A DNA stretch of 64,000 nucleotides from sequence record PX969468.1; one strand, written 5' to 3'. A model generated the notes under the pieces. The model saw only the letters and a list, made by a program, of their open reading frames with translations, was not told where the DNA came from and made no database searches. Of this stretch, positions 9,324 to 46,070 are shown one piece after another; position 1 is the stretch's first letter; each line of letters opens with the position of its first letter. The translations under genes were made by a program, and so were the position numbers. Source of the DNA: a phage.

Positions 9324-9349
9324 GCCCTCGCTTCGGCGGGGGCTTTTTG
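9324..9349 (+). terminator. rho-independent terminator (UUCG tetraloop hairpin plus T-run)
   Basis: gccctcgc-ttcg-gcgggggc followed by tttttg directly after stop codon at 9314-9316. Confidence 0.7.
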
Positions 9350-9355
9350 TTTGTA

Positions 9356-9384
9356 TTGCGTATTAACTCAAAATCTGGTAAAAT
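9356..9384 (+). promoter_or_regulatory. sigma70-like promoter with extended -10 (TTGCGT-N17-TAAAAT, TG at -15/-14)
   Basis: motif caaaatYTGGTAAAATA shared with 14866-14894 and 21197-21225. Confidence 0.45.
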
Positions 9385-9415
9385 AGCTATCATGATTGTT
9401 TAACCTGGAGGCACA

Positions 9416-10006: not shown

Positions 10007-10007
10007 G

Positions 10008-10984: not shown

Positions 10985-13900
10985 TGCCAATTGCAATGAT
11001 TGATAACATCGTTGCTTCTGCAAGATCTTCGAGCTATGACTGGAACGCATCCAAGGCAGCTCTGGCTGACAGCCTGAACACTGTTACCACCAGAACCCTT
11101 GATAAGATTTTCGAAGGCAACAAATCTTACAGAAGTCAACAAGATAGACAAAAACTTCTCAGATCTTCTGCTGCACCTTGCTCTGTAGTATATGGGAAGA
11201 CACGTACATCTGGATTGCTTGCGTTTTTAGAGCAGGACAGGGACAGAACCCTTCATTGTGCTATTGTTCTTGCCAATCATCCCTTGGAAGGTATAGAAGA
11301 TATACTTATCGACGGTAATCCTATTTCCTCGTATGGGGATTTGGTATCGTGGGAGTTGCATAACGACAGGAAAACCTCTGATCCTTTCATGGGCACACAC
11401 TGCCCTTCGTGGTCACCAGACATGATAGGTAGAGGGATCAGTTGGCTACGTGCCAGCTTTAAGTTTGACCCTAACAAGTTTCCTTTTGGGTTGCCAAACG
11501 TTACACTTGTCAAGGTTGGTAAAAAATGTTATGATCCTCGTATCAGTAAAGAGGTGTATACCAACAACGCTGCCTTGGTGATTCTGGACTATCTAAGAAC
11601 GTACCTTAAATGTCCTGACGAAACCATCAACTGGGAGTCCTTCAAGGAAGCTGCCAACATATGCGACGAGGCTGTAAAAAACGCGGACGGAACCAGTGAG
11701 CGCCGTTACACCATTAATGGTGAGTTCGACATGGACGAAGCACCAGCAAGTATTATGGCAGAAATGCTGAAGGCTTGTGGTGCAGATCTTAGCTATGTAG
11801 CTGGCAAATACGGTCTGCTGGTAGGTGCATACTATGGCCCGGCAACAATGACACTGAGTGAGGACTGTGTTTGCGGTGAGGTTAAGATCTATCCTGAAGC
11901 CTCCTTCGACAAAAGATCAAACACAATAACTGGGAGATTCACCAGTCCAACCAAAGGGTATTCTGAAACAGACTTCCCATCGGTGTTCGTACCTGAATGG
12001 GTAGAGAAGGACGGAGAAAGAAAGATAATTGATATAGATTATCGTTTTGTTACCAGTCCTTATCAGGCTCAGCGTGTTTCCGCAATATTCTTAAGACGTG
12101 CCAGAGCTGGCAGGATTATTGAAGTAACCTGCAATATGCGGGGTTTTAAATTTAAGCCTGGGCGTTACGTTACGATGGACCTCCCAAGTATTGGTATAGT
12201 GGGCCAAGAAATGAGGGTTCTTGAATGGGAGTTCACCAAAAAGGGCGGTGTCAAGGTAAAACTCCGTCAAGATGCTAAAGAGTGGAATGATGCCACAGGG
12301 CAACTTCCGGATTCTGGAGATGTGGATATTCCGATATCCCCGTCCGGTGTAGCTCAACCGCAAAACTTCAGATACTCTGTTCTTCAAGCTGGGGAAGTAA
12401 CTCATGGTGTTTTGGCTTGGGACAACGTTGGAACTTATGCTCAAAATATTGTGCAGGTAAGAAAGAACGGAGAGATTATTTGGACAGCGCAAACAGTCGA
12501 GCAGTTTGTCCGCGTAGAAGGATTGACCAAAGGGTCATATACAGCAACCGTGGTTGCAACATCTTATAAGGGTGGTGTATCTCCAGAAGCCTACTGCGAG
12601 TTCAACATTCAAGCACCTGAAGCTCCTGTTTCTGTAGAAGTTAAGCAGGGATACTTTGCTATCACCTTGATTCCGCACAGCAGGGACTTAGCAAGTGTAA
12701 GCACCCAGTATGATTTTTGGACATCTGGTATGACAAGGTTGCCTGACACAAGTGATGCAACCGTTACTTCAAAAGCCACCCGTATGGGTGTTGGTTCAAC
12801 TTGGACATCTGAAGGTCTGCAGAACGATAAGATTTATTATTGGTATATTCGAACCACAAACGCTTTTGGTAGTTCTCAGTTTGTAGAATGCGCTGCACGC
12901 TGCTACACCTCTATTGAAGATTTGATGCCTCAGATAGATGCTGAATTTAAAAAGACAGAAACTTATAAAGAGTTGATGAGCACTTTAGATTCCTCTATCG
13001 AGGAGGTTGAAAATCGTGTCATAGAGCTTAACAAGTACATGGACGGAAGGGTAGATGAGGCATTCCAACAACTTGGAGATAGGATAGGTGCGGTAGTTAC
13101 AGAGACAACTCAGAAGTTTGAGGATGTCAATGGAAATATCACAGCTCTGGATAGGAAACTTGTTGCTGCACAGAACAAGTTCACCAACGATCTGAACACT
13201 GAAAGTGGAAGACTGGCATCCCTGATCGAGACAACCAATAAAGCAACCACTGATCTTCTGAACAAAAAGACAGAGGCTTTAGACGAGAAATTGGTTGCAG
13301 CCAAAGGGGAGTTGGTAGAACAAATAAGTGGTGTGGAGAGCGGATACCTTGCCGGAGATAAAACTCTAGATGGCAAGATCAATACCCAGAGAACGGAACT
13401 TGATGCAAGCATCTTAAGCACCAACCAGGCGACAGTGGATCTTCTCAACAGGACATCTGAAACTCTGGATCAAAAGATCAGTCAGACAAACGCGACGGTA
13501 TCTAAGAACTATACCACCCTTGATGGTAAGATAACTACCGCAAAAACTGATCTCAATACCTTGATTGCCAATACCAACAAGGCCACCACAGATTTGTTGA
13601 ATCAGAAAACCTCTGCACTGTCGGAGCAGATAACTTCTGCACGTGGGGAAATTTCTACCAACAAACAGGCGATTAAGGATTTAGATGGGAAGCTGACCTC
13701 CACAAAAACAGCACTGGACGCTACAATCTCCGATACCAACAAAGCAACCGTGGATCTTATTAACGGCACAGCGTCAGCTATTCGTCAAGAACTTGCTGTT
13801 GCTAAGCAGGAGATCATTGATGATGTCGGTGATGTGTCAGAGCTTAGAGCTGCAGTAGCTACAACATCTAAGGCTGTGACAGACTTAGAGGGCAAAGTAA

Positions 13901-30008: not shown

Positions 30009-30020
30009 CAGGAGGCAAAT

Positions 30021-30050
30021 AAAAAGGGGGCCAGACGGCCCCTTTCTTTT
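30021..30050. terminator. bidirectional rho-independent terminator between convergent gene blocks
   Basis: aaaaaggggcc-agac-ggcccctttcttttt: GC stem flanked by A-run and T-run. Confidence 0.65.
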
Positions 30051-30055
30051 TATAA

Positions 30056-30256
30056 TTAGTAATATTCCCAACACGACCCATCTTCAGACGGCTGGACACG
30101 CTTACCTTCATGATCGACATAGGTGTAACCACAGCCTTCACAGATAACAGGGGCCGCATAACCTTCCTTCCACTGGTCCTCTGTGATCAGTCCTTTCAGA
30201 TCTCCGCAGTCACGACCAAACAACTCTTCAGAACAATCTTTGCAAAAATCAGCCAT
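30056..30256 (-). CDS. small zinc-ribbon protein
   Basis: 66 aa with CKDC...C..C...CEGCG cysteine pairs. Confidence 0.4.
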   Translation of the reverse strand: MADFCKDCSEELFGRDCGDLKGLITEDQWKEGYAAPVICEGCGYTYVDHEGKRVQPSEDGSCWEYY

Positions 30257-30259
30257 TTC

Positions 30260-30667
30260 TCAGTCCTCGCATTTAACAAATTTTTCTACAGATCCACCAA
30301 GCACAGCTTGTTGTTTAATGGCACTTTCTTCATCATAGTGGGTAGATTTATGTTCCGTACCTCCAAACTTACCTGTGTGGAAGGTGTGCACCCAAATCTC
30401 TTTAGGAAGGGATTTATTCTCTTCCTCCACCAACTCCCACATACCCCACAAGTGATCTGTGATATCTCTGATGAAATATCCCTCACCGAGGTTTGTATTC
30501 ACACTATAAGCTGATTCGTGATCTCCGCAAATATAACGGAAGGCAGTGTACTCTTTACCTGGTGTGAAGTGAGTGTCCATTAGTATAGCTGTTAAAGAAT
30601 AAGGGTCTCGAAAGCCTAAGAACTTTAGTTTAACAATTTCGACATTTACATCCGCAAGATTATCCAT
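30260..30667 (-). CDS. hypothetical protein
   Basis: ORF track start 30706 lacks RBS; internal ATG at 30667 is preceded by GAGGAG. Confidence 0.4.
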   Translation of the reverse strand: MDNLADVNVEIVKLKFLGFRDPYSLTAILMDTHFTPGKEYTAFRYICGDHESAYSVNTNLGEGYFIRDITDHLWGMWELVEEENKSLPKEIWVHTFHTGKFGGTEHKSTHYDEESAIKQQAVLGGSVEKFVKCED

Positions 30668-30831
30668 GACGATCTCCTCTGTTCGGTTGGTGAGATAATC
30701 ATACATAGATCTGGTGTTGGTGTCAAGTTTAATTTTAAGCGATTCTGGGGAGGTATTTTGTTCAGGAGGGTAATCACACAGGGTAGGGCAATTTATGAAG
30801 GCACAGGCCTCGTTTGAGGCCTTAAAATAGG

Positions 30832-31212
30832 TTATGACGCTTTGACGTAGCGCTCTGACAAAGCTGGGAAGCCAAAAGCAGTACCTATACTACCGTATGC
30901 TACCCACCAGTGAAGTTCATCGTGACACCATTTTCCGATCAGGAAGGTGCTGGGGTAGCGGGTCAGTATTTTGGCATAAGCTTTAGGGTCTGCATCCTCT
31001 GGGATAATGATACTTGGAACATCTTTGTTATGACCACAGCAGCAGTTTAGAGTTTTCAATCCTGCCGCCCATAGACTCATGATAGGCTTAGCCATGCACT
31101 TATCAAGGCACACACGTTTTTTGCCGTCACGGAGCTTTTTAGGCACATCAACGATAACATTTTGATGCTTGGCACCTTTCACTTTCCAATTATAGGATTT
31201 ACACTTGCACAT
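30832..31212 (-). CDS. hypothetical Cys/His/Trp-rich protein
   Basis: 126-aa ORF (CKCKSYNW...NCCCGHN...WCHDELHWW). Confidence 0.4.
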   Translation of the reverse strand: MCKCKSYNWKVKGAKHQNVIVDVPKKLRDGKKRVCLDKCMAKPIMSLWAAGLKTLNCCCGHNKDVPSIIIPEDADPKAYAKILTRYPSTFLIGKWCHDELHWWVAYGSIGTAFGFPALSERYVKAS

Positions 31213-31409
31213 TTAATCAGTCTCCATCTAGAAAGCAATACTTTACTTAAAATCTTTGTCACCTATTACGATTGCACGAATCCACTCATTGTGATGTTCA
31301 ATGGCGGTAAGATGTAACATAATGCAGTGATTGTCATTACCAAACACGGTGCGGTAAGCTTTAGCAGCACCATGATATAACTTCCACATCAGGTAATGAT
31401 ATCTTCGCC

Positions 31410-31883
31410 TCATGGCTCTTTCTCCGGTTCAGGATCTGGGTAATCTTCAATAATAAAGGGCCATCCGTTCCGCTTAGCCTCAGACTTGTACTCAATCTCC
31501 TTCATTGCAAACTCTAACTGATTTTTAGCCGGAATACATGCCGGAGAATCATCCACCCAGATGTCAGGGTAGATATCGAACTGCGCCAGGTAGGCTGCCT
31601 TCTGCACACCGCCTGTATAGAACACACCTACGTCCAACTCTTTGCGCCAATACTCAATGTCCACGTTGTCTTGAGTGATGAATCGGAAAGTCACAAGGTA
31701 TACTGTCCACCCTTCCTTTTTCAAGTCCCTAATCAGACGGGAGAAGATGAAAGGACTCGCATTAAATGTTCCATCAAAGTCAATGGCAATGATGTGTGTG
31801 CCGTGGCGAGTCTCGTATGGATTGCTTGTGGTAAGATTACTGTAGTTAAAAGGAACTTCTTCCCCGCAGTAGCTGTAGTCCAT
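31410..31883 (-). CDS. HAD-superfamily phosphatase-like protein (candidate nucleotidase)
   Basis: HAD motif I IAIDFDGT, motif II-like LVTF, C-terminal WVDDSP; ATG at 31883 preferred over GTG at 31889. Confidence 0.5.
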   Translation of the reverse strand: MDYSYCGEEVPFNYSNLTTSNPYETRHGTHIIAIDFDGTFNASPFIFSRLIRDLKKEGWTVYLVTFRFITQDNVDIEYWRKELDVGVFYTGGVQKAAYLAQFDIYPDIWVDDSPACIPAKNQLEFAMKEIEYKSEAKRNGWPFIIEDYPDPEPEKEP

Positions 31884-31885
31884 AT

Positions 31886-32161
31886 TCACACCTTCTCGTT
31901 GATAAATTTACGGGCGGTTTGGTGAGTTGTTTCTGCTGTCTTCAGAATGATATTAATTTTATTGTCAAGATCATTCATCTCTGCAGTTAATTCAGGAATC
32001 TCTCCAGCATGCATAGTGAAATCATACATAGACATGCCCAGAATCTCATTGATGCGACGGTTGCATTCTGCAGCACGCTGGTTCATTTTCCAAGCTAATA
32101 CCAAAGCCTCCTGCGTAGCCTCTAGTGCAAAGTCTAATACGTCGGCCTCTTCTTTCGTCAT
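31886..32161 (-). CDS. hypothetical protein
   Basis: 91-aa ORF, helical/charged. Confidence 0.35.
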   Translation of the reverse strand: MTKEEADVLDFALEATQEALVLAWKMNQRAAECNRRINEILGMSMYDFTMHAGEIPELTAEMNDLDNKINIILKTAETTHQTARKFINEKV

Positions 32162-32216
32162 CTCAGTCTCTCCTGTTGTATTGTTGGTAGGTGCATGAAC
32201 ACCTTATATCTCACTT

Positions 32217-32783
32217 TTATTCAAACTGCAATAGCAAGTCCACCACCGCACTAGGCCTGTCAACAAATTCCCCAGGTCCACATGCCCATAGAGGGTATCC
32301 ATCAACATACCGCCATATCCAACCTGCAGTGTGAAGCTCAAGCAGGGCAGTGCCGTCCTTACTGTCAACCACCCTTTCCCACAGTGTTGGGCAGCGAAGC
32401 TTGAGAATCGGATCACCCCCCTTATACCCGTCCATGTAGATGCCCATTGCAAAGTTCAGCATCATCTTTTTGTGCACTGATCTCTTACTGAGAGTGCTCA
32501 TCACTTCCTCTTTGTGAATGTTTGTAAGCTTCTCTTTGGCTACCCGCAGATCGTTGCAACCATTGTTCAGCAGATCTTCCAGACACTTGATCCGAAGGTC
32601 GTGAATGTCTTTGTCGTGTACCGTTGGCACAGGGTCGTAGCGGTATAGCACTGTTGATACAAGGTTGCTCGGGTGTGGGTCTGACAGCAACCCATAACCC
32701 CAATACTCTTCTGTATCTGAAAGGACAATACACCCAATGTCTCTGTCAAGCTTTCCTGTGTTGTAAGCCACATTGACCGCCAT
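32217..32783 (-). CDS. hypothetical protein
   Basis: 188-aa ORF in leftward early block. Confidence 0.4.
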   Translation of the reverse strand: MAVNVAYNTGKLDRDIGCIVLSDTEEYWGYGLLSDPHPSNLVSTVLYRYDPVPTVHDKDIHDLRIKCLEDLLNNGCNDLRVAKEKLTNIHKEEVMSTLSKRSVHKKMMLNFAMGIYMDGYKGGDPILKLRCPTLWERVVDSKDGTALLELHTAGWIWRYVDGYPLWACGPGEFVDRPSAVVDLLLQFE

Positions 32784-32785
32784 GA

Positions 32786-33031
32786 CTATAGCTCCACTAA
32801 CAAAGTGCTTTCAAAGTGCCGTTCATGCAGACCGTTGTAAGGGACCACTTCTACAACGCCATCACGGACATATGGGGCCATCATAGTAGTATAATCTCCA
32901 AACGGGTTGGTATTGTCACTAACCACAACCACCTTCTGCCCTTCCTTGGCAGAGTGCCAGATAGACCTGCACTTCATCAGGTGTTCGAGAGTTCCTGGTA
33001 AAATTTTGTTACGTTCTTTACGGGTCTTCAT
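32786..33031 (-). CDS. hypothetical protein
   Basis: 81-aa ORF tightly packed with neighbours. Confidence 0.35.
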   Translation of the reverse strand: MKTRKERNKILPGTLEHLMKCRSIWHSAKEGQKVVVVSDNTNPFGDYTTMMAPYVRDGVVEVVPYNGLHERHFESTLLVEL

Positions 33032-33477
33032 AACAGGTATAGCTCCTTATGAAAGTAGTCTTTTAATTTCTCACTGAGAAACTTCTTGATACCTTCCTCT
33101 AAAGTGTTTTCGATGTAGTCCAGCTTAACTGCTTCGATGGACATATCATAGATCGCCAGCTCTAAGCTGTCAAGTCCCATCATAGCATGAACCATAAGAT
33201 TTTCATCTTCAGATACATTCAGGGGACTTCCTATAACATCTGTAGGGAGGATAGTTTCCCAATTATTCTGGGGGGTAGTTCTCCCGCCATCCACTTTACG
33301 GCGCAGTTCGAAGGTGTTCTTAGTGTAGAACACTTCATAAGAAACGATACGACTATCGCTCTCATAATAAACGAAGTTCAGGTAGGAGCCTAGCCGCAGT
33401 CGGCAAACTTCTACCCCAAACCATTGTTTCTTATAAGAATTCAGGCTAATGCTGTCGCATTCACGTTTGCTCAACAC
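33028..33477 (-). CDS. hypothetical protein
   Basis: 149-aa ORF, 4-nt overlap with downstream gene. Confidence 0.35.
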   Translation of the reverse strand: MLSKRECDSISLNSYKKQWFGVEVCRLRLGSYLNFVYYESDSRIVSYEVFYTKNTFELRRKVDGGRTTPQNNWETILPTDVIGSPLNVSEDENLMVHAMMGLDSLELAIYDMSIEAVKLDYIENTLEEGIKKFLSEKLKDYFHKELYLL

Positions 33478-33492
33478 GGCTCTCTCCTTTTG

Positions 33493-33726
33493 TTAATCTT
33501 CGTAAATCAGGATTTCTGCTTTAGGTTTTCGTGCTTTCAGGTCCAGCTCTATCCAGTGCACCATAGCTGTTTCAAGAAAAACAGCTTGGATGCATCCGTC
33601 CTCAGCGTGCCCCACCAACATAACAAGATCTTCACCTTCGTCATCTGCATCACGAACATACAGAATCTCTCCAGATTCAAAGTCTTTCACAACCTGATTG
33701 CTGGATAATTTACGAATTTTTGCCAT
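33493..33726 (-). CDS. hypothetical protein
   Basis: 77-aa ORF. Confidence 0.35.
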   Translation of the reverse strand: MAKIRKLSSNQVVKDFESGEILYVRDADDEGEDLVMLVGHAEDGCIQAVFLETAMVHWIELDLKARKPKAEILIYED

Positions 33727-33727
33727 A

Positions 33728-33991
33728 TCAGAAACCCTCTAAAAAGCTCTTGTAGAAAATAATTTCAGTGTCCACACCTGTCACGATCTTATCGTTTCGG
33801 ATCTCATCTGTGAGGTAGGTGTCAAAACGCAGAACCTGTGTGGTGTTGTCACACATCCACTCAGCTGTGACCATTGCGAAAATCTTAGCATCTTCATTAT
33901 CTGGTGTGAATGTTACCACCTCACCGCACTTAAACTTTTCGATAGGTTGAGTGTTGGCTTTCGGTTCTGCGATAGTGATTTTTGTGGTCAT
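33728..33991 (-). CDS. hypothetical protein
   Basis: 87-aa ORF. Confidence 0.35.
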   Translation of the reverse strand: MTTKITIAEPKANTQPIEKFKCGEVVTFTPDNEDAKIFAMVTAEWMCDNTTQVLRFDTYLTDEIRNDKIVTGVDTEIIFYKSFLEGF

Positions 33992-34257
33992 TACTCTTCC
34001 TCCATAGTTTCACCAAATACTTCGATACGAGCATCGAGCTCGGTTGCTTTCAGCTCCCCAACAAAATCTTTTAGTTCTTTCTCGTCCAGATCGTAAGCCC
34101 ACACACAAGAAGAACATGCAGATTTCACAATCAGCAGCGTAGATATACGGCCTGACTCCGTGATCATGCTCACAATGGTTCCTACAGGGAACGTGTTGAT
34201 AGCTTTTTTAACTGGGCGTTCAGCTTTGATTACTACCTCTGTTGCCATAAATAACAT
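33991..34257 (-). CDS. hypothetical protein
   Basis: 88-aa ORF. Confidence 0.35.
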   Translation of the reverse strand: MLFMATEVVIKAERPVKKAINTFPVGTIVSMITESGRISTLLIVKSACSSCVWAYDLDEKELKDFVGELKATELDARIEVFGETMEEE

Positions 34258-34263
34258 CCTCTC

Positions 34264-35757
34264 TTACTTAGCGTACTCGATTAATTCCACAGTTTTCCCA
34301 AAGCTCGGAATATAATTTTTATTATACCCTTCGGTGAGAACCCATAGAGTATCGTACTTTTTCCACTTGTTGTCAACAGCCTTTTGTTCAAAGTTATGCT
34401 CAAAGTATAGGTCGGTCAGGACGATGACATCTTTTGCATTCGGTATGTTAGCATCCAGATACTCGAACACGCAAGCAGCTGTTGTGCCCCATGTTGAGTG
34501 GACCTCATAGTTGATCATCTCGTCTATGTTGCCGCGAGTGTATACTTTAACCTCTCCAACCTCAGTTGACCAACAGAACATTGTAACCTTAAACTCTTTA
34601 TACAGATTGCACAATCCTGTGATTTCATTGAACATTTTCTTTAAAGTTCTTTGAGAGATCGAGCCAGAAACGTCCAAAGCCACCACAATATCTATAGTGT
34701 TTTCCGGATTACGACCAGGAACAATAACGTGTTGGTTCTTGTTTATAGCTCCGACTTTTCGCATTGTGCTGGTCAAAGACCCAGATCGGCGACCAGGTTT
34801 TCTGTAGGTCAGTTCGGCCTTTCTTTTAGACAACATACGCTGCTTGATGATGTCTATATAATTGATTACAGGCTTACCTCTATTCTTGACAAACTCACGA
34901 ACCGCCTCAGGGCAACGACCTCCGGAAGCTTGCATTGCTGCCTCAAGCATGTCACCAGAGTCCTGCATGGCCTGATCTTTATCAGATTGGCTGATTACAG
35001 GTTGTGGCTGATCATACCCCATCGCCTTTCCAAGATCATCACTAGTGCCACCGTTACCACTCATGTGATCGTCGGTTTGTCGTTTATCTCCTTGAGAGTT
35101 CTCGCCTTTACCGTTCTTACTTTTACCGCTATTCTGATCTCTTTGCTTATCAAGAACCGCATAGACGTTCTCAGCAATCCATCCATGGAACCTCATGTCA
35201 CAGTAGCAACTAGCTAAGAAGCCAAAAGACTTACCTTTTACAAACGTAGTGCTTTTCCCCTTCGGGAAGAAAACACAAGGGGGCTTGCTAAAGTCAACCA
35301 CAAGACCTGTGTTGATAACATGATCACAGGCAATATTGAACAGCTCCGGCTCAAAACTTTTGCCACGGACCAGATGATCACAGATAATATGCCCCACCTC
35401 ATGCGATAGAAGAAATGCCACCTCTTTCACAGATTTTGGGGAATAGAAAACCTCAGCCATCTCAAACTGCTTGTCAGTCAAAGATGCTTTAAGAATGGTT
35501 TTGCGCTCATCCGCCAATCCCATAATGAACTCAGGGCTGTAATAAATGCGTTTATGGTCTGTTGCCATGGTGGAGCACCATGTGTGGTTTTCTACGAACT
35601 GCAACCCTGACAACAGTGTGCCATAAAACGGCAGTTTTTCAAGAAGATACATACGTGCTGCCTGCAGCATTCGCAAGGCGTCATCTTTTTGTGCGGCAAT
35701 GATTTCTGAACTTCTGCTATCCATTAAAACTCCAGAAGGGGCCTTGGCCCCTGTCAT
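34264..35757 (-). CDS. VWA-domain protein with N-terminal putative zinc-metallopeptidase domain (DUF2201-like; MoxR-partner type)
   Basis: HExxH motif (LSHEVGHIICDH); VWA MIDAS motif (IVVALDVSGSIS) and later VIVLTD; TAATG coupling to upstream gene. Confidence 0.65.
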   Translation of the reverse strand: MTGAKAPSGVLMDSRSSEIIAAQKDDALRMLQAARMYLLEKLPFYGTLLSGLQFVENHTWCSTMATDHKRIYYSPEFIMGLADERKTILKASLTDKQFEMAEVFYSPKSVKEVAFLLSHEVGHIICDHLVRGKSFEPELFNIACDHVINTGLVVDFSKPPCVFFPKGKSTTFVKGKSFGFLASCYCDMRFHGWIAENVYAVLDKQRDQNSGKSKNGKGENSQGDKRQTDDHMSGNGGTSDDLGKAMGYDQPQPVISQSDKDQAMQDSGDMLEAAMQASGGRCPEAVREFVKNRGKPVINYIDIIKQRMLSKRKAELTYRKPGRRSGSLTSTMRKVGAINKNQHVIVPGRNPENTIDIVVALDVSGSISQRTLKKMFNEITGLCNLYKEFKVTMFCWSTEVGEVKVYTRGNIDEMINYEVHSTWGTTAACVFEYLDANIPNAKDVIVLTDLYFEHNFEQKAVDNKWKKYDTLWVLTEGYNKNYIPSFGKTVELIEYAK

Positions 35758-36809
35758 TATTTAACGTGCTTGAAAATACCAGCCAACTCGGTCATTGTCA
35801 TGCGGGTGGTCTTCATAAGGTCTGTCATAGCCTTCTCCATAATTGGAGATACTACCATAAAGTTACCTTTGGTGAAACCTTTATTCCAATCGGTCACTAA
35901 TAGTGGTTTAAGTCCGGTCCCGAGACGCTCACCAGTTAAAGCACAACATTTTCGAATATACGTGCTCTTAAACTGACTGAATGACAGATCAACTTTCATA
36001 CCTGCATCGTAGAACGTCTGGCAATAGAAAGTGTAAGCTTTGGCAATCTCAACATCGTCAGGCAGTGCAGGAACCTCTTCTGTAAGCTCTTCTTCGGCCT
36101 CTTGAGGCTCTTTTTCCTCTTCGTGATCCTGTTGCATCATTTCTTCAATCTCTTCTGTTACAGGCTCATTTACGATGTCAGAAATGTGCTTGTTGGCTCC
36201 ACGATTAGCCATGAAGTTTTTAAAATCCTGCATTGGTGACATATCTTCCTCCCATTCTTCGTCAAAGAGTGCTAGTTTATCCTCTTCCGTTCCATATTGC
36301 AAGATGAAATCTTCAAAAGTGTAATCACCTTTCAATTTCTCCATACGCTCTTCGCTCAGGTGGAGCATCATCTGCTGGACAATTTTTCGATCAGTTTTGT
36401 CTTTAATCAAGACTGCGGTCTTTTTATCTACCAGACAGTCCTTTAGAGAGTTGCATCTCAATCCCACCACACAACAATTATCAACAGCATAAGGACCTTC
36501 ATCATCTATCCGCTCTAGGGAGGGGTAGAAAGGATTTCCCAGTCCGTTTTCATCTGTGTGCATGTCGAAAGGTATAAGGGTATAGTCGCACACCCCCTCT
36601 CCTAAAAGTTTTTTACCAAATAGGAGGTATTCTTCCCATGACAGGTTGAACTCTATATCTCGTTTCCGTGCATTATTTTGTTTGCGTCTGTATTTTTTGA
36701 GCAAGCGCTCTAACTCTTCTGGTGTATAATATTTTTCAAGATTCATGAGTTGTCTCTCGTGCTCTGTAAGTGAAGAAATCTTATCAATTGTCTCAACAGA
36801 TGTCAACAT
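35757..36809 (-). CDS. acidic hypothetical protein with two copies of an HNH_3-like motif (Arg in place of first His)
   Basis: PSLERIDDEGPYAVDNCCVVGLRCNSLK and PLLVTDWNKGFTKGNFMVV; long Glu-rich linker; first gene of leftward block. Confidence 0.4.
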   Translation of the reverse strand: MLTSVETIDKISSLTEHERQLMNLEKYYTPEELERLLKKYRRKQNNARKRDIEFNLSWEEYLLFGKKLLGEGVCDYTLIPFDMHTDENGLGNPFYPSLERIDDEGPYAVDNCCVVGLRCNSLKDCLVDKKTAVLIKDKTDRKIVQQMMLHLSEERMEKLKGDYTFEDFILQYGTEEDKLALFDEEWEEDMSPMQDFKNFMANRGANKHISDIVNEPVTEEIEEMMQQDHEEEKEPQEAEEELTEEVPALPDDVEIAKAYTFYCQTFYDAGMKVDLSFSQFKSTYIRKCCALTGERLGTGLKPLLVTDWNKGFTKGNFMVVSPIMEKAMTDLMKTTRMTMTELAGIFKHVK

Positions 36810-36819
36810 CAAAAACGTG

Positions 36820-36848
36820 TTGACTTTACTCTAAATCTCCGATATAGT
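36820..36848 (+). promoter_or_regulatory. sigma70-like promoter TTGACT-N17-TATAGT driving rightward early block
   Basis: ttgact 36820-36825, tatagt 36843-36848, in divergent intergenic region. Confidence 0.5.
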
Positions 36849-36888
36849 GCACCCATTCGAAAGAAAACTAACATAGGAGCACTCACTC

Positions 36889-37788
36889 ATGGCAAATCTT
36901 AACAGTTTTAGTACGCGGTGGAAACAGGACATAACAACCAATCTTTCAGCTGGGGACATCCTTTCTGCAATTTACGAGGCTTTAGATGATAAAGCTACTT
37001 CAAAAGCGGTTTGTACCAACCCACTAATTCCTATAGTGATGAAGGTGATTGAGCGTAGATTGGTATCGGGGTCTGATAAGTGGACATATTTAGATAATGA
37101 AGGACACACCTATTCCAACGGGTATGTCGATATAAAAGTAGAATACGCGGTATCATACCGCCGGAGCGGTTCTGTGACTTTCAACTTTTCTGGAGGTTTT
37201 CGATCTCTGGCAACTTCACCTTTTGTTTCCTCAGAAGAGAAGTTTGAACTTCCGTTCCTTTGGATGATGGCTAACGCGACAGGAAAAACCCCCGTGAGCA
37301 TTCGCGTAAAATACAACTACAACGGGTCCAGTAAGATCTATGCCGAGAGTATCTCAGCAAGTTTTTATTTTGTGATGGGGGATGGAATCCTCAAGCACAT
37401 AAAGATGTGCGATATGCATGATGTTATAAATGAAGTGACTGATAAGAATGTTTTAGTGAAGGACCTCAACAATTTCTATACACCTGGGGACTATTACGTC
37501 AACCGCCCACTGTGCATCTTTAATGCCGCACACCCTTTAGGTGAATACCTGATCGTTAATAGTGACATTGCTAACAACATTTTTGAACTGGCAAGAGTAC
37601 AAAATGAGGTATTGACATCCTGCAAAAGTGGTGATAAATTTACTGATGAAGAGATGGGTGTTTTAGAAATGATGGGGTATAAATGCAGTCTTTGGGTAGA
37701 TGAGGTGTTTAATGACTACATCTACGGACAGGATATTTACCCGTTAAAGAAGTATACTGATACAAGTTTAATTTATGCGGGGATTTGA
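36889..37788 (+). CDS. hypothetical protein
   Basis: 299-aa ORF, first gene of rightward block. Confidence 0.45.
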   Translation: MANLNSFSTRWKQDITTNLSAGDILSAIYEALDDKATSKAVCTNPLIPIVMKVIERRLVSGSDKWTYLDNEGHTYSNGYVDIKVEYAVSYRRSGSVTFNFSGGFRSLATSPFVSSEEKFELPFLWMMANATGKTPVSIRVKYNYNGSSKIYAESISASFYFVMGDGILKHIKMCDMHDVINEVTDKNVLVKDLNNFYTPGDYYVNRPLCIFNAAHPLGEYLIVNSDIANNIFELARVQNEVLTSCKSGDKFTDEEMGVLEMMGYKCSLWVDEVFNDYIYGQDIYPLKKYTDTSLIYAGI

Positions 37789-38063
37789 CTATGATGAAGG
37801 CATGTGGTAATGTATATTACGTCGGTGAGCATGTTCAGGCAGACAGTGTGTGGAAATCTATTAAGTCCACCACTGACGATGCCTTTCTGAGTGGACTATG
37901 TTTCCCCAATCCGGGAGACATCCTCCCTCACCCTGGAGATTTTGTTATCAACAAGATGGACGGTTATACCGTGTGCCTGATGGTTGAGAAAATCTTTTTA
38001 GACACTAGGCACAATCACCGTCTTGTGTTAAAATTTCAAGAATGTAAAATGACAATTGCCTAA
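37785..38063 (+). CDS. hypothetical protein
   Basis: 92-aa ORF, ATGA overlap. Confidence 0.35.
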   Translation: MTMMKACGNVYYVGEHVQADSVWKSIKSTTDDAFLSGLCFPNPGDILPHPGDFVINKMDGYTVCLMVEKIFLDTRHNHRLVLKFQECKMTIA

Positions 38064-38076
38064 GGAGGCCTTACCT

Positions 38077-38433
38077 ATGTCTAAAGTTACTTATCGTGCA
38101 GCTATTTACTGCAATGAACACCCAATCAATAATGATGGTCACTGCCTTTTTAAAGAAAATCAGTTGGGCTGTATTGTCCTACCTGATGAAGGGGAAGGTT
38201 ATCTGATTGCATTGACAGGGTTTGAGCCTGAAGCTCTGGAAGCCAATCTGGACTACCTGGTAGAAGAGGGTGCTGCAGACCTGGTTGCTAATGGCCTCTC
38301 CGTAAGCCTTGACGAAGTGGAGCGCTTCATGGGCAATTACCGTGTAGTGCGGGAGTTTACTATCGATGTGGAAACTCCAGAGTGGGGTAGCACTGAAACT
38401 AATGCCGAAGAAAAAGAAGAGGAGGTAGAATAA
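38077..38433 (+). CDS. hypothetical acidic protein
   Basis: ATG at 38077 follows AAGGAGG; ORF track start 38056. Confidence 0.35.
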   Translation: MSKVTYRAAIYCNEHPINNDGHCLFKENQLGCIVLPDEGEGYLIALTGFEPEALEANLDYLVEEGAADLVANGLSVSLDEVERFMGNYRVVREFTIDVETPEWGSTETNAEEKEEEVE

Positions 38434-38690
38434 TGAAAGTACAGATCTTGACTAATGCCGAGAAGATGTTTATTGAAGATACACCTTTTGAAGCTGGTGA
38501 GCTACAGTTTGTTTATTTTGTTGACTTAGATAAGGTGTTTCCTGCACTGAATCTGGGTCTGGATGAAGTTCCTCATAAGGTTTTGTGCCAAGTTGTTCGT
38601 GCCTTAGCGGCAGAGGGGGAGTTCCGCACCCTTCAAGATGTCCAGACCTACGGGTATCTTGAACTACAACGAGAAGAAGAGGTGGACTGA
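38433..38690 (+). CDS. hypothetical acidic protein
   Basis: 85-aa ORF, ATGA overlap. Confidence 0.35.
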   Translation: MKVQILTNAEKMFIEDTPFEAGELQFVYFVDLDKVFPALNLGLDEVPHKVLCQVVRALAAEGEFRTLQDVQTYGYLELQREEEVD

Positions 38691-38692
38691 TA

Positions 38693-39073
38693 ATGGCACG
38701 GTGGAAGACAACAGTTGACCTTCATGATCAGTGGTTAGGACGCATCACTGAAGACGGGAAACTAGTGGAGTGGGACAATAAGCATGTTAGCGAGTTGGCA
38801 AGCATTGTGGCTGGCAAGTTACGCTCCAAGTTCCCTGAACAACTGGATCCTGATAATTCAAAGTTCGATCCTGAGTTGGAGGATGTTGTATACTACTTCG
38901 ATACCGTGGATGACTACGATGCGTGGTTTGCAGCACGAGAGCTTTACCCACAAGGCTCTGCTATGCGCCAGATGGAAGAAGATTATCCTCCGTGCGAGCA
39001 ATTTAATAGCGCAATGACTTGCCTCTACGATTGGGCAGATAAGAACCTTGTCTGGATTCGGACTGCATTCTAG
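38693..39073 (+). CDS. hypothetical protein
   Basis: 126-aa ORF. Confidence 0.4.
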   Translation: MARWKTTVDLHDQWLGRITEDGKLVEWDNKHVSELASIVAGKLRSKFPEQLDPDNSKFDPELEDVVYYFDTVDDYDAWFAARELYPQGSAMRQMEEDYPPCEQFNSAMTCLYDWADKNLVWIRTAF

Positions 39074-39079
39074 CAGGTA

Positions 39080-39382
39080 GTGGCAAGGATGCCACTTAAA
39101 AGAGTAATAAACATGTTATACCAGAAACACGAACTTTGTGCAGAAAAAGAGTTAAATTTTGACAAAGTTATCCACAGATATTGTTATGGAAAAACCGGAA
39201 GACAACTAAGAAGATGCACTCCAGCATTCTTTCACCCCAGCAGGCGGCTAAGTCCTGAAGAGGCGACAGCAGAAAGGGTTGCATACAACTGGGAAGTTGT
39301 GTACGATATTGACAGATCCGATGTGACATCTGTTTTGGAAAACTTTGAAAACACTTACACACAAGTAGAGGATTTTTACTAA
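39080..39382 (+). CDS. hypothetical protein
   Basis: 100-aa ORF. Confidence 0.3.
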   Translation: MARMPLKRVINMLYQKHELCAEKELNFDKVIHRYCYGKTGRQLRRCTPAFFHPSRRLSPEEATAERVAYNWEVVYDIDRSDVTSVLENFENTYTQVEDFY

Positions 39383-40566
39383 TGTCAAGAAACGTATTTG
39401 AAAGTGGTCAAATCACTGTCCGTGAGTTGCCAGCTATCATTCAGTTTGCCCAGCGTCATAACCGATCTGTCCTGATTTTAGGACCAATGGGTGTGGGAAA
39501 GAGTCAGGTGATGAAGCAGATCGCTGATAATATGTTCGGTGAGCGAGATGACAACCTGGTTGACGTGCGGCTGTCAGATAAAGATCCTGCCGACTTATCT
39601 GGGCTACCTATCCCTGTAGAAGCTGATGGAACTACACGTACAGTGTTTGCAATTCCAGAATTTTGGCCTGCAGATCCGAACTGGAGCGGAATTATCTTTC
39701 TGGATGAGCTTACTCATGCAGATAACTATCTGCAAAAGGTTGCAATGCAGATTATGCTCGACCACAAGTGCGGCACCTATGCATTCCCTAAAGGCTCTGT
39801 TTTTGTGGCTGCGGGTAACCGTTCTACAGATGGTGCTGTTCTTTCGGCGCTCGAAGCTCCTCTGGCTAACCGCTTTATCATTGTAGAGGTTACAAGCAAT
39901 GCAGAGGTGTTTATTGAGGACTACGCATTCCTCAACGGGGTTCACTCCTCTGTAATTGGGTATCTGAAAAGAGTTCCATCAGCTATTGATAATTATGAGG
40001 CTATGGCTGAGATTAATTGTCCATCTTTTGCCACACCACGATCTTGGGTTGCTGCATCTGACATCTTGCACGATTTTGACAGCGGTATTATTTCTGACGC
40101 TATGGCCCGTGTTCTTCTGCAAGGTGCTATTGGTCACACTGCAGCGGTAGAGATCTGGACCTACCACACCAAGAAACGCAACTTACCGGAAATCGGTCGG
40201 ATTATGGCAGGGGGTTGCAAAGAATACGTAGGTCCTAAACAGCCAGACATCTTGTGGATTCTTGGATCTGAAGGTTGTATCGCTATTCGTAATATGATGG
40301 AAAATGCAAGTATCTCCGACGAAGATCTTGTTAGCTGTGTGGCAAACTTCCTCGATTTCCTTTGGGAAAACTTCAAGGACGAGAACCGAGATTTTGTATT
40401 CTCAGTCTTTATGGCGATGATGAAACCTAATGCCTTAGGAAATGCCTTGCTTATCGGTAAAGGTCGTGACAAGATTGTTGCTCAGCTGATCAAAGCATAC
40501 CCAAACCTGATGAAGATTGTAAAAGAGTTTGGTGAAGAGTTTAGCGCCATTTTGGCTAAAGCTTAA
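39382..40566 (+). CDS. AAA+ ATPase, MoxR/RavA-like
   Basis: Walker A LILGPMGVGKSQ, Walker B IIFLDELTHA; size and layout of MoxR-class ATPases; VWA partner at 34264..35757. Confidence 0.7.
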   Translation: MSRNVFESGQITVRELPAIIQFAQRHNRSVLILGPMGVGKSQVMKQIADNMFGERDDNLVDVRLSDKDPADLSGLPIPVEADGTTRTVFAIPEFWPADPNWSGIIFLDELTHADNYLQKVAMQIMLDHKCGTYAFPKGSVFVAAGNRSTDGAVLSALEAPLANRFIIVEVTSNAEVFIEDYAFLNGVHSSVIGYLKRVPSAIDNYEAMAEINCPSFATPRSWVAASDILHDFDSGIISDAMARVLLQGAIGHTAAVEIWTYHTKKRNLPEIGRIMAGGCKEYVGPKQPDILWILGSEGCIAIRNMMENASISDEDLVSCVANFLDFLWENFKDENRDFVFSVFMAMMKPNALGNALLIGKGRDKIVAQLIKAYPNLMKIVKEFGEEFSAILAKA

Positions 40567-40575
40567 GGAGGTTGT

Positions 40576-40956
40576 ATGGCTAAAGTAGGTAAGCGGGGAA
40601 ACTACCTGGTGGTATTGACCGAGGAGCCGGAGAAGGAGTACGAATGCAGCTCCACTTGCGTGATCGATATCCGAGAAAAAGATGTAGATGAAATCTGGTT
40701 TAAAATATTGGACGCTTGCGATAGCAGTGATTATTTCTTCATCTATGTCAACGATAAGGCTGGGTTCTTCCATGACGACGGAGAGTTGCCGTATGAAATC
40801 TATGAACTTGTAGAGGCTTGCCATCGTGGAGATGCGGAGTTGTTTGGCCTACGGCTGAAAAGCGGTAAATTCTTCTATCAAGATGAGTGCATGAATCTTC
40901 ATAACTTTGTAGAGGGAACTTGCAACGATGGAGAGATTTTGGCACACTACGATTAA
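40576..40956 (+). CDS. hypothetical protein
   Basis: 126-aa ORF with RBS (aaggagg). Confidence 0.4.
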   Translation: MAKVGKRGNYLVVLTEEPEKEYECSSTCVIDIREKDVDEIWFKILDACDSSDYFFIYVNDKAGFFHDDGELPYEIYELVEACHRGDAELFGLRLKSGKFFYQDECMNLHNFVEGTCNDGEILAHYD

Positions 40957-40968
40957 TTTCTAATACCA

Positions 40969-40994
40969 CCCCGCTTCGGCGGGGATTTTCTATT
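40969..40994 (+). terminator. rho-independent terminator (UUCG tetraloop)
   Basis: ccccgc-ttcg-gcgggg then attttctattt. Confidence 0.65.
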
Positions 40995-41004
40995 TGGAGT
41001 TATT

Positions 41005-43494: not shown

Positions 43495-44700
43495 ATGATT
43501 TTCATCTACGAACATTTCAAAACTCGTAAAGAAGCACGCGACCGCCGTGCAGAACTTGAGAAGAAAGGTTTCACATGTGCCATTGAGAAAGGTGACACAA
43601 CCTGGACACTGGCAGTGGGTGCCCCAGAATTGTTCGATCCTGACCGTGACAGCGTCTGCTACACCCGTGAGGATTTTGAAACCCGTGAAGAGGCCCGTCT
43701 ATTTCGATATGGGCTGGAAGATAACGGTAAGTACGCCATGATCTTAGACTTAGGCGAAGGTTCCGTTAAACGTTGGGGCGTGATATACCCACTGTGTGTT
43801 GTTCACGGTGTGGGGTTTACTGGGGTAGCAATCAAGTCAGAAGAACCTTTAGTAGAAGTCAAAGATCCGGTGCTGGAAGTGGTGAGCAGTGTGTCTCAGC
43901 AACAGACTCGAAGCATCGAGCCTTTGGTAGTTATTTGCGGGGAACTCCTCCAGATCACCTGCAACGAAGGAATTTTTGAAATTCGCCGCAGCGAAAGTGA
44001 GGAAGTTTACCAGAAAGTCTTCGACCATATCTCTGTTCAGGAATATGATGAGGCAATTGGTGAAATCCTTGTCTGGCTGGAACGCAAGAATGAGTTCACC
44101 ACACTTGCAGACAACCTGATCATGAAAGATGGTAAGCTCTACTACTACGGTGTAGAGATGCGATCCACCATTGCAAAGAAAATTGAGAAAGATTATGCAG
44201 ACGGAACGCTGGATGACCGCTATGTGAAATTCCTCGTTCGCCTGCTACGCAATCCTTCTGCAAAATCTGTAAACATGCTCTACGATTTTATGCAGGCCAA
44301 TGATATTCAGATTGCAGAAGATGGTCGAATCATTTGCTACAAAGGGGTTCAGTTTAACGGCAGCAAGTGGGTGGATTGTCACAGTGGTAAAGTTCCACAA
44401 TACCAGGGTGCTTTTGTATCCATGCCTCGTAACTTTGTAGAGGATGATCCGGAAGCTGCGTGCTCCTATGGCTTACACTGCGCCAGCAAAGAGTATGCAA
44501 AGAGCTACGGCACTGTAATGACTGTTATGGTTGATCCTGCAGATGTGGTTAGTGTGCCATACCAACACAATAGCGCTAAGTGCCGTGCATGCCGCTATGA
44601 GATTGTGGTAGCTCCGGAAGCACGCAAAGATGGAGACCCTATTGAATATGTAGTTGATCGTGACGGTAACACTATCGACATTCTTTACGAGGAGGCGTAA
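43495..44700 (+). CDS. rIIB: rIIB-like protein
   Basis: C-terminal half aligns with T4 rIIB as recalled (LYDFMQANDIQIAEDG; DCHSG; SMPRNFVEDD; GLHCASKEYAKSYG; DVVSVPYQHNSAKCRACRYEIV). Confidence 0.85.
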   Translation: MIFIYEHFKTRKEARDRRAELEKKGFTCAIEKGDTTWTLAVGAPELFDPDRDSVCYTREDFETREEARLFRYGLEDNGKYAMILDLGEGSVKRWGVIYPLCVVHGVGFTGVAIKSEEPLVEVKDPVLEVVSSVSQQQTRSIEPLVVICGELLQITCNEGIFEIRRSESEEVYQKVFDHISVQEYDEAIGEILVWLERKNEFTTLADNLIMKDGKLYYYGVEMRSTIAKKIEKDYADGTLDDRYVKFLVRLLRNPSAKSVNMLYDFMQANDIQIAEDGRIICYKGVQFNGSKWVDCHSGKVPQYQGAFVSMPRNFVEDDPEAACSYGLHCASKEYAKSYGTVMTVMVDPADVVSVPYQHNSAKCRACRYEIVVAPEARKDGDPIEYVVDRDGNTIDILYEEA

Positions 44701-46070
44701 TGGAAAAAGGGCAGTATGATGTAGGCACAGATGCTGCCCTCGTTGCAATCATGAGCGGTGAGAATGTCTTCGTTTCAGGACCCGCAGGTTGTGGGAAGAC
44801 GTACCTCATCAACATGATCCAGTCAATGTATGGAGACTCTTGCATAACGGTTGCCCCGACAGGGGTAGCCGCTTTAAACGTTAATGGAGCAACAGCACAC
44901 CGAACCTTCGATCTTGCAGCAGGTGTGAGCATGGAGTCAGACTGGACCGCAATAAGGGAAAAAACAGCAAAGCCTTTGAAAAGCAAGGCATTTACCATCC
45001 TAATTATCGATGAAATCTCTATGATCCGTGCTGATAAGTTTATAGAGATGGATAGGAAACTCCGCTTCCTTCGAAAAAATGACAAACCTTTCGGGGGCAT
45101 ACAGGTCATATTGTTTGGCGATTTTTACCAGGCACCTCCTGTTGTCTCTTCTATGGAGAAGGAAGCCTACTTCAACTTCTACCATACGGACCTATGTTGC
45201 TATACCGAATCTTGGAAAGAGCTTGACCTCCACAACATAGCCCTAATAGATCAGTTCCGACAGGAGTCTATTCGATTCGCCACAATGCTCAACTGTGTTC
45301 GTGAGGGTCGTCGCATAAAAGAGGTTGTAGCAGAGCTTAATGCTCGCTGTTACAAAGGTGGTGTACCAACAGACGCTCTCACAATTTGCGCCACCAACAA
45401 ACAAGCAGAGGAAGTGAACAGAAGGTTCTATGATGCCATCAACGCCCCAGAGAAGGTATACACTGGTGAAATGAAGGGTAAGTTTCCCTCCACCTTGCCA
45501 GTTGAGCAGGAGATGAAGTTGAAAATTGGCATGAAAGTTATGATAACCGCCAACGATGTTGACCCGACGCACAAAGTACCTTATTATGTTAACGGAACAC
45601 GTGCCACGATTGTTAAATTTAAGAACAAGGCAGTGGTGGTAGAGCTTGAAGATGGAACACAGGTTGACATAGAGCAGAGGTTGTGGGAGAATAACGAGTA
45701 TAAGCCATCTCAAAGATACAACATTGCAGAAAGGAAGATGGAGAAGTTTATAGAGAGGGTAGTGATTGGATCATACAAGCAACTTCCTCTGAAATCTGGG
45801 TATGCCGTAACATCTCATAAAAGTCAAGGACTTACGCTAGATTGTTACAACCTGGACCTTGGAAAGAACGGAGCTTTCTCTCCTGGGATGACGTATGTTG
45901 CTTTGAGTCGAGTTAAGACAATACAAGGAATAAACTTGTTGCGTCCACTAAGAGAAGTTGACATTATTGTTGACCCGCGAGTCGTAGAGTTTTACAATAC
46001 AACATTCCCTGACTTAGACAAAATTGTCAGGAAAGATTTTGAAACCAGAGCAGAAGAGGGGGACGTATGA
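44700..46070 (+). CDS. dda: SF1B DNA helicase, Dda/PIF1/RecD-like
   Basis: Walker A GPAGCGKT; IIDEISMI; ILFGDFYQAPPV; C-terminal VTSHKSQGLTLD and TYVALSRVK. Confidence 0.8.
   Translation: MEKGQYDVGTDAALVAIMSGENVFVSGPAGCGKTYLINMIQSMYGDSCITVAPTGVAALNVNGATAHRTFDLAAGVSMESDWTAIREKTAKPLKSKAFTILIIDEISMIRADKFIEMDRKLRFLRKNDKPFGGIQVILFGDFYQAPPVVSSMEKEAYFNFYHTDLCCYTESWKELDLHNIALIDQFRQESIRFATMLNCVREGRRIKEVVAELNARCYKGGVPTDALTICATNKQAEEVNRRFYDAINAPEKVYTGEMKGKFPSTLPVEQEMKLKIGMKVMITANDVDPTHKVPYYVNGTRATIVKFKNKAVVVELEDGTQVDIEQRLWENNEYKPSQRYNIAERKMEKFIERVVIGSYKQLPLKSGYAVTSHKSQGLTLDCYNLDLGKNGAFSPGMTYVALSRVKTIQGINLLRPLREVDIIVDPRVVEFYNTTFPDLDKIVRKDFETRAEEGDV

Follow-up and report, generated by a model that had tools for sequence, protein, structure and literature searches.

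We analyzed two genes in a window of 64,000 nucleotides, the whole stretch of phage DNA studied here (sequence record PX969468.1), one encoding a MoxR-class AAA+ ATPase and the other a protein that combines a zincin-like metallopeptidase with a VWA domain. Both open reading frames (ORFs) had been located in a preliminary description made from the letters alone, which placed them about 3.6 kb apart in divergent orientation. This layout is confirmed, as they lie on opposite strands with 3,624 bp between them (35757 to 39382). The source phage is an rV5-like Vequintavirus (rV5 group) of Escherichia coli, and more than 100 Vequintavirus genomes, those of rV5, O157 typing phage 4, and the BASEL phages among them, match the 7-kb stretch around both genes with 95-97% identity. 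In related records of this genus, the plus-strand gene (39382-40566) already carries the label "MoxR ATPase", while the minus-strand gene is called "metallopeptidase", "VWA-like domain containing protein" or, wrongly, "HNH endonuclease". The coordinates of all features are collected in Table 1.

Two proteins encoded on opposite strands

The minus-strand ORF had been given as 34264..35757. An ORF of this extent exists, and 35757 is the start of its longest form, but the conserved start is Met12 at 35724, which yields a protein of 486 amino acids. We consider Met12 the likely start because it corresponds to the invariant first residue in homologues and to the annotated start in relatives. Two Pfam domains score above their gathering thresholds, first the N-terminal peptidase domain DUF2201_N (PF13203; 99 bits versus a cut-off of 23.2, E = 4.7e-28, residues 99-325) and then the C-terminal VWA-like domain DUF2201 (PF09967; 43.7 bits versus 26.4, E = 3.7e-11, residues 357-492). 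This is the layout of the COG3864-type "predicted metal-dependent peptidase". The combination of an HExxH N-domain with a VWA metal ion-dependent adhesion site (MIDAS; DVSGS) in the preliminary description is therefore correct. Careful alignment of 17 sequences, reaching down to 22% identity, revealed neither a broken HExxH nor a broken MIDAS motif; both are intact throughout, and the MIDAS is complete (DxSxS...T...D) on a VWA fold. The family profile matches the integrin alphaX I-domain (E = 3e-7), and the solved folds nearest to the VWA domain include the NorD VWA and the MDN1 MIDAS; the single sequence gave no match against PDB sequences. For the peptidase part, we found weak profile matches to M48/HtpX/BepA-type zincins around HExxH (E = 0.04-0.7), and a structural placement of this domain was not obtained. 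Peptidase activity of the zincin-like domain is predicted from its motif; literature searches found no report of a biochemically characterised DUF2201_N + DUF2201 family member.

The label "HNH endonuclease" is widespread for this protein (phrog_1314, many RefSeq records, including N4 gp25 at 2165-3307 of locus L097), and "DNA repair ATPase" also occurs; a further mislabelled gene lies at 7986-9422 of locus L098. The HNH label is wrong, as Pfam, motifs, and fold show a zincin-VWA protein and no HNH domain. In the rV5 record (DQ832317; 4265-5726 of locus L001, matching 34264-35724 of the window), the gene is split into the overlapping coding sequences ORF12 and ORF13, probably through a frameshift or sequencing error in this old record; the window and the phages nom, Bas54, and Bas55 each have one intact ORF of 486 amino acids.

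The plus-strand gene encodes a protein of 394 amino acids with a match to the PHROG family phrog_1297 ("ATPase", E = 9e-111). The Walker A and B motifs that had been described as MoxR-class are present as GPMGVGKS and IIFLDE. The ATPase residues marked invariant in Table 1 are identical in all of 19 aligned homologues, as are R147 and P219. The hidden Markov model (HMM) search proposed as a check gave a divided result: homologues carry AAA_3 and AAA_5, whereas the window protein itself reaches no curated Pfam cut-off (AAA_5, 16.8 bits versus 22; AAA_3, no match). Against PDB sequences, matches of the single sequence cover just the P-loop region of Clp ATPases. Such sub-threshold P-loop matches of the single sequence (Clp, sigma-54, STAND, DpdH, and BrxF; in Pfam, NCBIfam, PADLOC, and PDB) were rejected as evidence for a clade.

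With its own HMM matches sub-threshold, the protein is assigned to MoxR on the basis of its homologues, a profile search, and the predicted fold. Thousands of related sequences came up in a database search, and those that are 33-36% identical along 85% of the length (E about 1e-44) carry Pfam AAA_3 (PF07726; the MoxR core) and AAA_5 (PF07728) in precomputed annotations, some of these matches on homologues being weak or faint. A profile of the 19 homologues searched against solved structures ranked AAA modules of Midasin at the top (E = 4e-9). In the AlphaFold model (pLDDT 81.5), the predicted beta-hairpin of residues 75-90 follows beta2 and precedes Walker B, with another, short hairpin (about residues 129-135) ahead of sensor 1/beta4, so that the helix-2 and pre-sensor-1 inserts of MoxR ATPases are both present in the predicted structure. 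When this model was compared with PDB by Foldseek, ranks 1-18 were all NorQ or CbbQ2, both MoxR ATPases (E = 4e-8 to 1e-6). Foldseek and the family profile thus agree on MoxR/Midasin-type nearest relatives, and placement in a different AAA+ clade, which would have contradicted the preliminary description, was looked for and not found. We accept the product of this gene as a MoxR-class ATPase of the helix-2-insert clade. By analogy with NorQD, the 75-90 hairpin may correspond to the part of NorQ that holds on to the VWA "finger". Asn146, Arg164, and Arg220 are candidates for sensor 1, arginine finger, and sensor 2, respectively, judged by their position in the AAA+ fold.

Table 1 Features of the ATPase and VWA-metallopeptidase locus, with positions in the window.
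Feature	Position	Strand	Remarks
Zincin-like metallopeptidase (DUF2201_N) + VWA-like domain (DUF2201), 486 aa	34264..35724	-	Orthologue of Bas54 bas54_0055 and N4 gp25
HEVGHIICDH, HExxHxxxxH metal-binding/catalytic motif	35374..35403	-	H119, E120, H123, H128 invariant
MIDAS DxSxS, DVSGS	34660..34674	-	D362, S364, G365, S366 invariant
MIDAS threonine loop, WGTT	34480..34491	-	G424, T425 invariant
MIDAS aspartate, LTDL	34408..34419	-	D449 invariant, T448 nearly so
MoxR-class AAA+ ATPase, 394 aa	39382..40566	+	rV5 ORF4; orthologue of Bas54 bas54_0063
Walker A, GPMGVGKS	39481-39504	+	G37, G39, K40, S41 invariant
Walker B, IIFLDE	39691-39708	+	D108, E109 invariant
Predicted helix-2 insert beta-hairpin, residues 75-90	39604..39651	+	AlphaFold strands 75-81, 84-90
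AAGNR...LANRF, sensor-1 Asn146 and candidate arginine finger Arg164	39808..39876	+	Both invariant
Candidate sensor 2, Arg220 in ATPRSW	40039-40041	+	Invariant
Back-to-back sigma-70-like promoters	36778..36848	both	rV5 record annotates promoter P11 here
Minus-strand promoter, TTGACA-17-TAAGAT	36806 to 36778	-	
Plus-strand promoter, TTGACT-17-TATAGT	36820-36848	+	
Srd-like "anti-sigma factor" gene	35757..36746	-	First gene of leftward unit, directly upstream of VWA gene
100-aa ORF	39080..39382	+	Stop overlaps ATPase start codon by one base; context only
Terminator-like hairpin CCCCGCTTCGGCGGGG followed by T-run	40969..40984	+	One gene downstream of ATPase gene

Ancestral adjacency of the two genes and their separation

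Both proteins have direct homologues in phage N4, namely gp24 for the ATPase (hhalign probability 99.9, E = 6e-37) and gp25 for the VWA protein (probability 100, E = 4e-58). The N4 proteins share the architecture of the rV5-type pair, including HExxH and a DxSGS MIDAS, and their genes are likewise located near rIIA. However, gp24 and gp25 are adjacent and codirectional, with 167 bp between them, whereas the genes of the window are far apart on opposite strands. The rV5-type proteins are also longer (394 versus 352 and 486 versus 380 amino acids), with insertions relative to gp25 ahead of the HExxH motif and in the linker.

The adjacent arrangement prevails among relatives. We scanned 80 IMG/VR loci containing a relative of the ATPase with HMMs of both families and found that in 69 of the 71 informative loci the ATPase gene was immediately followed by a codirectional VWA-peptidase gene; two loci had room for a VWA gene and lacked it, and nine contigs were too short to tell. 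Adjacency was also observed in all three informative loci from metagenome-assembled genomes (MAGs), in four metagenome contigs, in Certrevirus CR8 (ATPase followed by VWA, with a 17-bp stop-to-stop gap and 67 bp between the annotated genes), and in the jumbo phage RaK2 (33136-34428 and 34516-35784, tblastn matches for both proteins). In the phage collection, the two proteins show nearly the same distribution over host genera (813 and 674 records). The genes were thus ancestrally adjacent, which agrees with the earlier remark that this VWA-metallopeptidase architecture normally partners MoxR ATPases. The module of the window has both N4-type proteins and lacks the N4-type gene order, which is typical of the family and no functional requirement. 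A scan of one bacterial or archaeal genome per species with the ATPase alignment, performed with a single narrow pattern, returned four loci only, all of them MAGs; by this measure, the ATPase subfamily looks essentially phage-borne.

The ATPase and the VWA-peptidase are not always found together. Contig L076 (IMG/VR 3300048042_000013) encodes a full-length ATPase homologue of 28% identity at 9947-11185, and the 10 kb flanking this gene on each side contain no VWA-peptidase gene, which makes the contig a second, independent case of separation or loss.

The divergent arrangement is common to three genera, represented by rV5, nom, Bas54, and Bas55 (Vequintavirus), Ro1 (Mydovirus), and GAP31 (Seunavirus), the interval between the two genes being 3.6-4.4 kb. 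CR8 and A5-4, which belong to the same subfamily, have kept the adjacency, as have N4 and RaK2. Because the outgroups have adjacent genes, the split arrangement is derived. In A5-4, an HNH homing endonuclease gene (6285-6779 of locus L008) lies exactly between the ATPase and VWA genes, which suggests that this junction is a hotspot for insertion or rearrangement. The gene order of CR8 runs from a bidirectional region through an HD phosphohydrolase gene and four small genes to the ATPase and VWA genes, with SleB, helicase, and primase on the opposite arm. The ATPase gene of the window shares its arm with SleB, rIIA, helicase, and primase, and the VWA gene is found on the other arm. CR8 and the split genera have the block from HD phosphohydrolase to ATPase in common, and in Ro1 and GAP31 the HD phosphohydrolase gene lies upstream of the ATPase gene. 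A single inversion of a promoter-proximal block ending at the ATPase gene would explain the split.

The -35 boxes of the two divergent promoters are 13 bp apart. The VWA gene is the second gene of the leftward unit and the ATPase gene the seventh of the rightward unit. According to Kropinski et al., the two genes belong to the rV5 units 10-1-238-164 and 11-26, and the late genes are located elsewhere. A bidirectional sigma-70 promoter between the units makes joint early expression of both genes plausible. The GC skew is negative from about 30 to 36 kb (region 30000-37000 of the window) and positive again from about 38 kb, a pattern that matches a minus-strand gene block ending at the bidirectional promoter.

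Selection, mutant phenotypes and flanking genes

Both genes are under strong purifying selection within Vequintavirus. We obtained dN/dS values of 0.012-0.017 for the ATPase (compared with Bas54, Bas55, nom, and rV5) and 0.022-0.033 for the VWA-peptidase (compared with Bas54, Bas55, and nom). A decay of the VWA gene after the split is ruled out by its dN/dS of 0.02-0.03 together with the integrity of all motifs.

Functional information comes from the close relative Bas54 (Escherichia phage MaxBurger), which was studied by transposon sequencing in the HIDEN-SEQ preprint (10.1101/2025.11.20.689424). The window ATPase is the orthologue of bas54_0063 (392 of 394 residues identical, syntenic, same locus layout), and the VWA-peptidase is identical to bas54_0055 at 478 of 486 residues. 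On E. coli K-12, 60 of 64 TA sites in the ATPase gene and 81 of 86 in the VWA-peptidase gene were hit, so that both are non-essential, while the structural genes of Bas54 tolerate no insertions (10.1101/2025.11.20.689424). On the clinical E. coli isolate CFE311, insertions in bas54_0063 were completely depleted (log2 fold change (log2FC) -7.23, q = 0), and a phage with a clean bas54_0063 deletion proved sensitive to DS-28, a two-gene defence system of CFE311, when this was cloned into K-12 (10.1101/2025.11.20.689424). The view that the function of such pairs in phages is largely unknown, expressed in the preliminary description, is therefore outdated, at least for the ATPase, which this 2025 preprint reports to be required against DS-28.

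The supplementary table of the same preprint lists bas54_0055, termed "putative metallopeptidase", as depleted on CFE311 (log2FC -2.20, q = 0.009), a gene that the authors neither deleted nor discussed and for which no construct is listed (10.1101/2025.11.20.689424). Its neighbours behave differently, with log2FC values of -0.08 for bas54_0056 (the Srd-like orthologue), +0.46 for bas54_0054, and +0.33 for bas54_0053 (10.1101/2025.11.20.689424). We rejected a polar effect as the cause of the peptidase phenotype, since insertions downstream (0054, 0053) and upstream (0056) are not depleted. The same holds on the ATPase side for bas54_0062, the orthologue of the 100-aa ORF, which is not depleted either (log2FC +0.24). 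The second DS-28 gene reported is bas54_0140, encoding a 99-aa protein of unknown function (log2FC -5.48) (10.1101/2025.11.20.689424); its counterpart is encoded outside this window.

Two further genes of the region stand out in the CFE311 data. The helicase gene bas54_0068 (about 44670-46067 in the window) is non-essential on K-12 and has a log2FC of -6.32 (q = 0); bas54_0051 (33028-33477) has a log2FC of -2.28, which is not significant after correction. In Extended Data Table 8 of the preprint, the sheet "resampling_K-12_vs_CFE303" (S6) contains the console line and the numbers of the CFE311 run, the same as in S7, so that the table offers no CFE303 comparison.

The flanking genes are described here as context. 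We do not count the Srd-like gene as a member of the module. Its product has PHROG matches to HNH endonuclease, endonuclease VII, and Srd families, and no Pfam domain was found in it. Its longest ORF (35757-36812) would engulf the minus-strand promoter, so that Met23 (36746) is probably the start. A dN/dS value for this gene was an artefact of unaligned indels and was not used. The 100-aa ORF is labelled "ATPase" or "MoxR ATPase" in phrog_13164 and in some GenBank records; as it has no detectable domain, this name looks like annotation spill-over from its neighbour. The label "putative alpha 1-3 fucosyltransferase" of the gene at 36889-37788 was inherited from rV5 and is not backed by Pfam, NCBIfam or PADLOC, the sole match of its product being a PHROG family of unknown function. 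Finally, 16 records named "Campylobacter phage" (MG0656xx; host Campylobacter jejuni) are 95-100% identical to positions 34000-41000 of the window, and the ATPase of one of them is 100% identical to that of the window; the Campylobacter host is likely a mis-assignment or contamination.

Function of the module

Pairs of this type have been described before. Iyer, Anantharaman, Krishnan, Burroughs, and Aravind (2021) reported a MoxR AAA+ - vWA(N-terminal metallopeptidase) "chaperone-cochaperone" pair in group 2.2 jumbo phages such as RaK2 (PMC7824862). It has the same two-protein architecture as the pair studied here. The rV5 group differs in that its genes are separated, dispensable on K-12, and connected with counter-defence. 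A working model is supplied by NorQ-NorD, CbbQ-CbbO, and Midasin/Rea1, in which a VWA domain is docked in the AAA+ pore and the MIDAS binds the target ("finger-in-pore" in NorQD). The identity to these systems is just 15-20%, NorD and CbbO act in metal insertion or Rubisco activation and have no peptidase domain, and the model of the phage ATPase shows an extra C-terminal helical region (about residues 270-394) compared with NorQ and CbbQ. The vWA-MoxR conflict systems of multicellular bacteria, whose vWA protein carries an effector and occasionally a metallopeptidase (Kaur, Burroughs, Iyer, and Aravind 2020; PMC7159879), differ in being host-side and ternary, with VMAP, FtsH or a beta-propeller as third component; no third component is conserved beside the phage pair in the metagenome contigs or CR8. 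PADLOC returned no match for the VWA protein and no significant match for the ATPase and thus provides no reason to class the pair with any known defence system of the host. We found no literature linking DUF2201 with MoxR or N4-like phages with a von Willebrand domain, and the CRISPRi-ART paper, which includes SUSP1 (thought to be rV5-like), makes no mention of MoxR, ATPase, VWA or metallopeptidase.

We read the pair as a module of the N4 gp24/gp25 type that was ancestrally adjacent, was split by inversion, is likely still made together early in infection, and serves in counter-defence, and we consider this reading slightly more probable than not to be right. By analogy with the systems named above, a hexamer of the ATPase would hold the VWA domain at its pore via the helix-2 insert, a partnership for which the gene adjacency in relatives is indirect support. 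The MIDAS may bind an acidic residue of a target protein, which ATP hydrolysis, or ATP-driven movement, would remodel and the fused zincin peptidase might cleave. Such a module would be dispensable in the laboratory host; on CFE311, the ATPase would overcome DS-28 with a contribution from the VWA-peptidase. The Bas54 data make a component of the host defence the best candidate for the target.

Several points weigh against this interpretation. The main difficulty is that the peptidase gene is depleted about 4.6-fold on CFE311, compared with the complete loss of ATPase insertions, and the second DS-28 gene of the preprint is bas54_0140 and not the VWA-peptidase gene. Together, these two observations mean that the VWA protein may be largely unnecessary for the action of the ATPase, or that the ATPase may have a different partner. 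The result for bas54_0055 was obtained on a clinical strain that differs from K-12 in many respects and not with cloned DS-28, and all functional data are from a preprint on a different, though 98-99% identical, phage. Interaction, ATPase activity, proteolysis, and target are all predicted for this phage family, largely by analogy. In addition, the DUF2201 VWA domain as modelled is small and shows no evident finger-like extension, and a role in virion assembly has been proposed for the same type of pair in jumbo phages (PMC7824862).

An unlikely alternative is that the two proteins became functionally uncoupled. After the inversion, the ATPase would act alone or with a new partner such as bas54_0140, and the VWA-peptidase would have a separate, minor role. 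The very unequal phenotypes on CFE311 (-7.23 versus -2.20) are consistent with this, as is the pairing of the ATPase by the HIDEN-SEQ authors with bas54_0140 (-5.48) and not with the peptidase. The genes are no longer coupled in translation or transcription, and contig L076 has the ATPase without a nearby VWA gene. However, every genus with the split arrangement that we examined retains both genes with all catalytic residues intact, and purifying selection on the two is equally strong. The ATPase and peptidase genes also change in the same direction on CFE311 while their neighbours do not, and characterised MoxR ATPases typically work through a VWA partner.

We regard as improbable a general role in host takeover or housekeeping, either as an early protease or chaperone acting on a host protein or as a chaperone for metal insertion like CobS/CobT or NorQD, the CFE311 phenotype then being indirect. 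The location of the VWA gene in the early region, directly downstream of the Srd-like anti-sigma gene, would suit such a role, as would the nearest solved folds, since NorQ and CbbQ are maturation or activation chaperones; for the peptidase, the screen on CFE311 does not distinguish defence from other ways in which the strains differ. A clean deletion of the ATPase gene nevertheless makes the phage specifically sensitive to cloned DS-28 in K-12, and loss of the genes carries no fitness cost on K-12. Moreover, the adaptor has a peptidase domain and not a CobT- or NorD-like N-terminal domain, and no candidate metalloenzyme client is encoded nearby.

A chaperone or protease that folds or processes structural proteins during virion assembly is very unlikely here, even though it is the published proposal for MoxR-vWA(metallopeptidase) pairs in group 2.2 jumbo phages (PMC7824862), the MoxR-VWA pair of an archaeal virus, ATV, is known to act in this way, and the pair is conserved across many large virulent phages: both Bas54 genes tolerate insertion at about 94% of K-12 TA sites and structural genes at none, both are in non-late units read from the sigma-70 bidirectional promoter near rIIA, SleB, and replication genes, the phage encodes its own prohead protease, and the N4 pair is surrounded by genes such as rIIA and one for dCTP deaminase, the 8 kb inspected there holding no gene annotated as structural. 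Non-essentiality and location in the early region thus argue against virion assembly in this phage group.

The genes were already annotated, the pair type was published in 2021 for jumbo phages, and the function of the ATPase was reported in the 2025 preprint, which treats the ATPase alone and without connection to bas54_0055. Our analysis explicitly connects the anti-DS-28 ATPase of Vequintavirus with the VWA-peptidase as its displaced partner, adds a quantified ancestral adjacency with a likely inversion, and draws attention to a peptidase phenotype that had gone unremarked in published supplementary data. For the VWA-peptidase, the widespread label "HNH endonuclease" needs correction in genome annotations.

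Conservation of the module extends to hundreds of virulent phages that infect enterobacteria, Pseudomonas, Vibrio, and marine bacteria, among them groups used in therapy such as rV5-like and N4-like phages. More than 650 deposited phage genomes contain it, including N4-like, rV5-like, and jumbo phages. It is possible, although we consider it doubtful, that the N4-type module is a general ATP-driven, MIDAS-targeted protease that disarms or destroys host immune proteins, with DS-28 as its first known target. If so, it would be among the most widespread counter-defence machines of phages and the first MoxR-VWA system with proteolysis as its output, and the split rV5 arrangement and the unequal phenotypes would indicate that the ATPase can also use a second adaptor.

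Overall, the requirement for the ATPase against DS-28 provides the first functional handle on a module whose role was long unknown. Recognizing the "metallopeptidase" 3.6 kb away as the ancestral partner of this ATPase leads to a mechanistic hypothesis, namely that a defence protein may be subject to targeted proteolysis or remodelling. In addition, the split arrangement in the rV5 group provides a natural test of whether both proteins must be made together.

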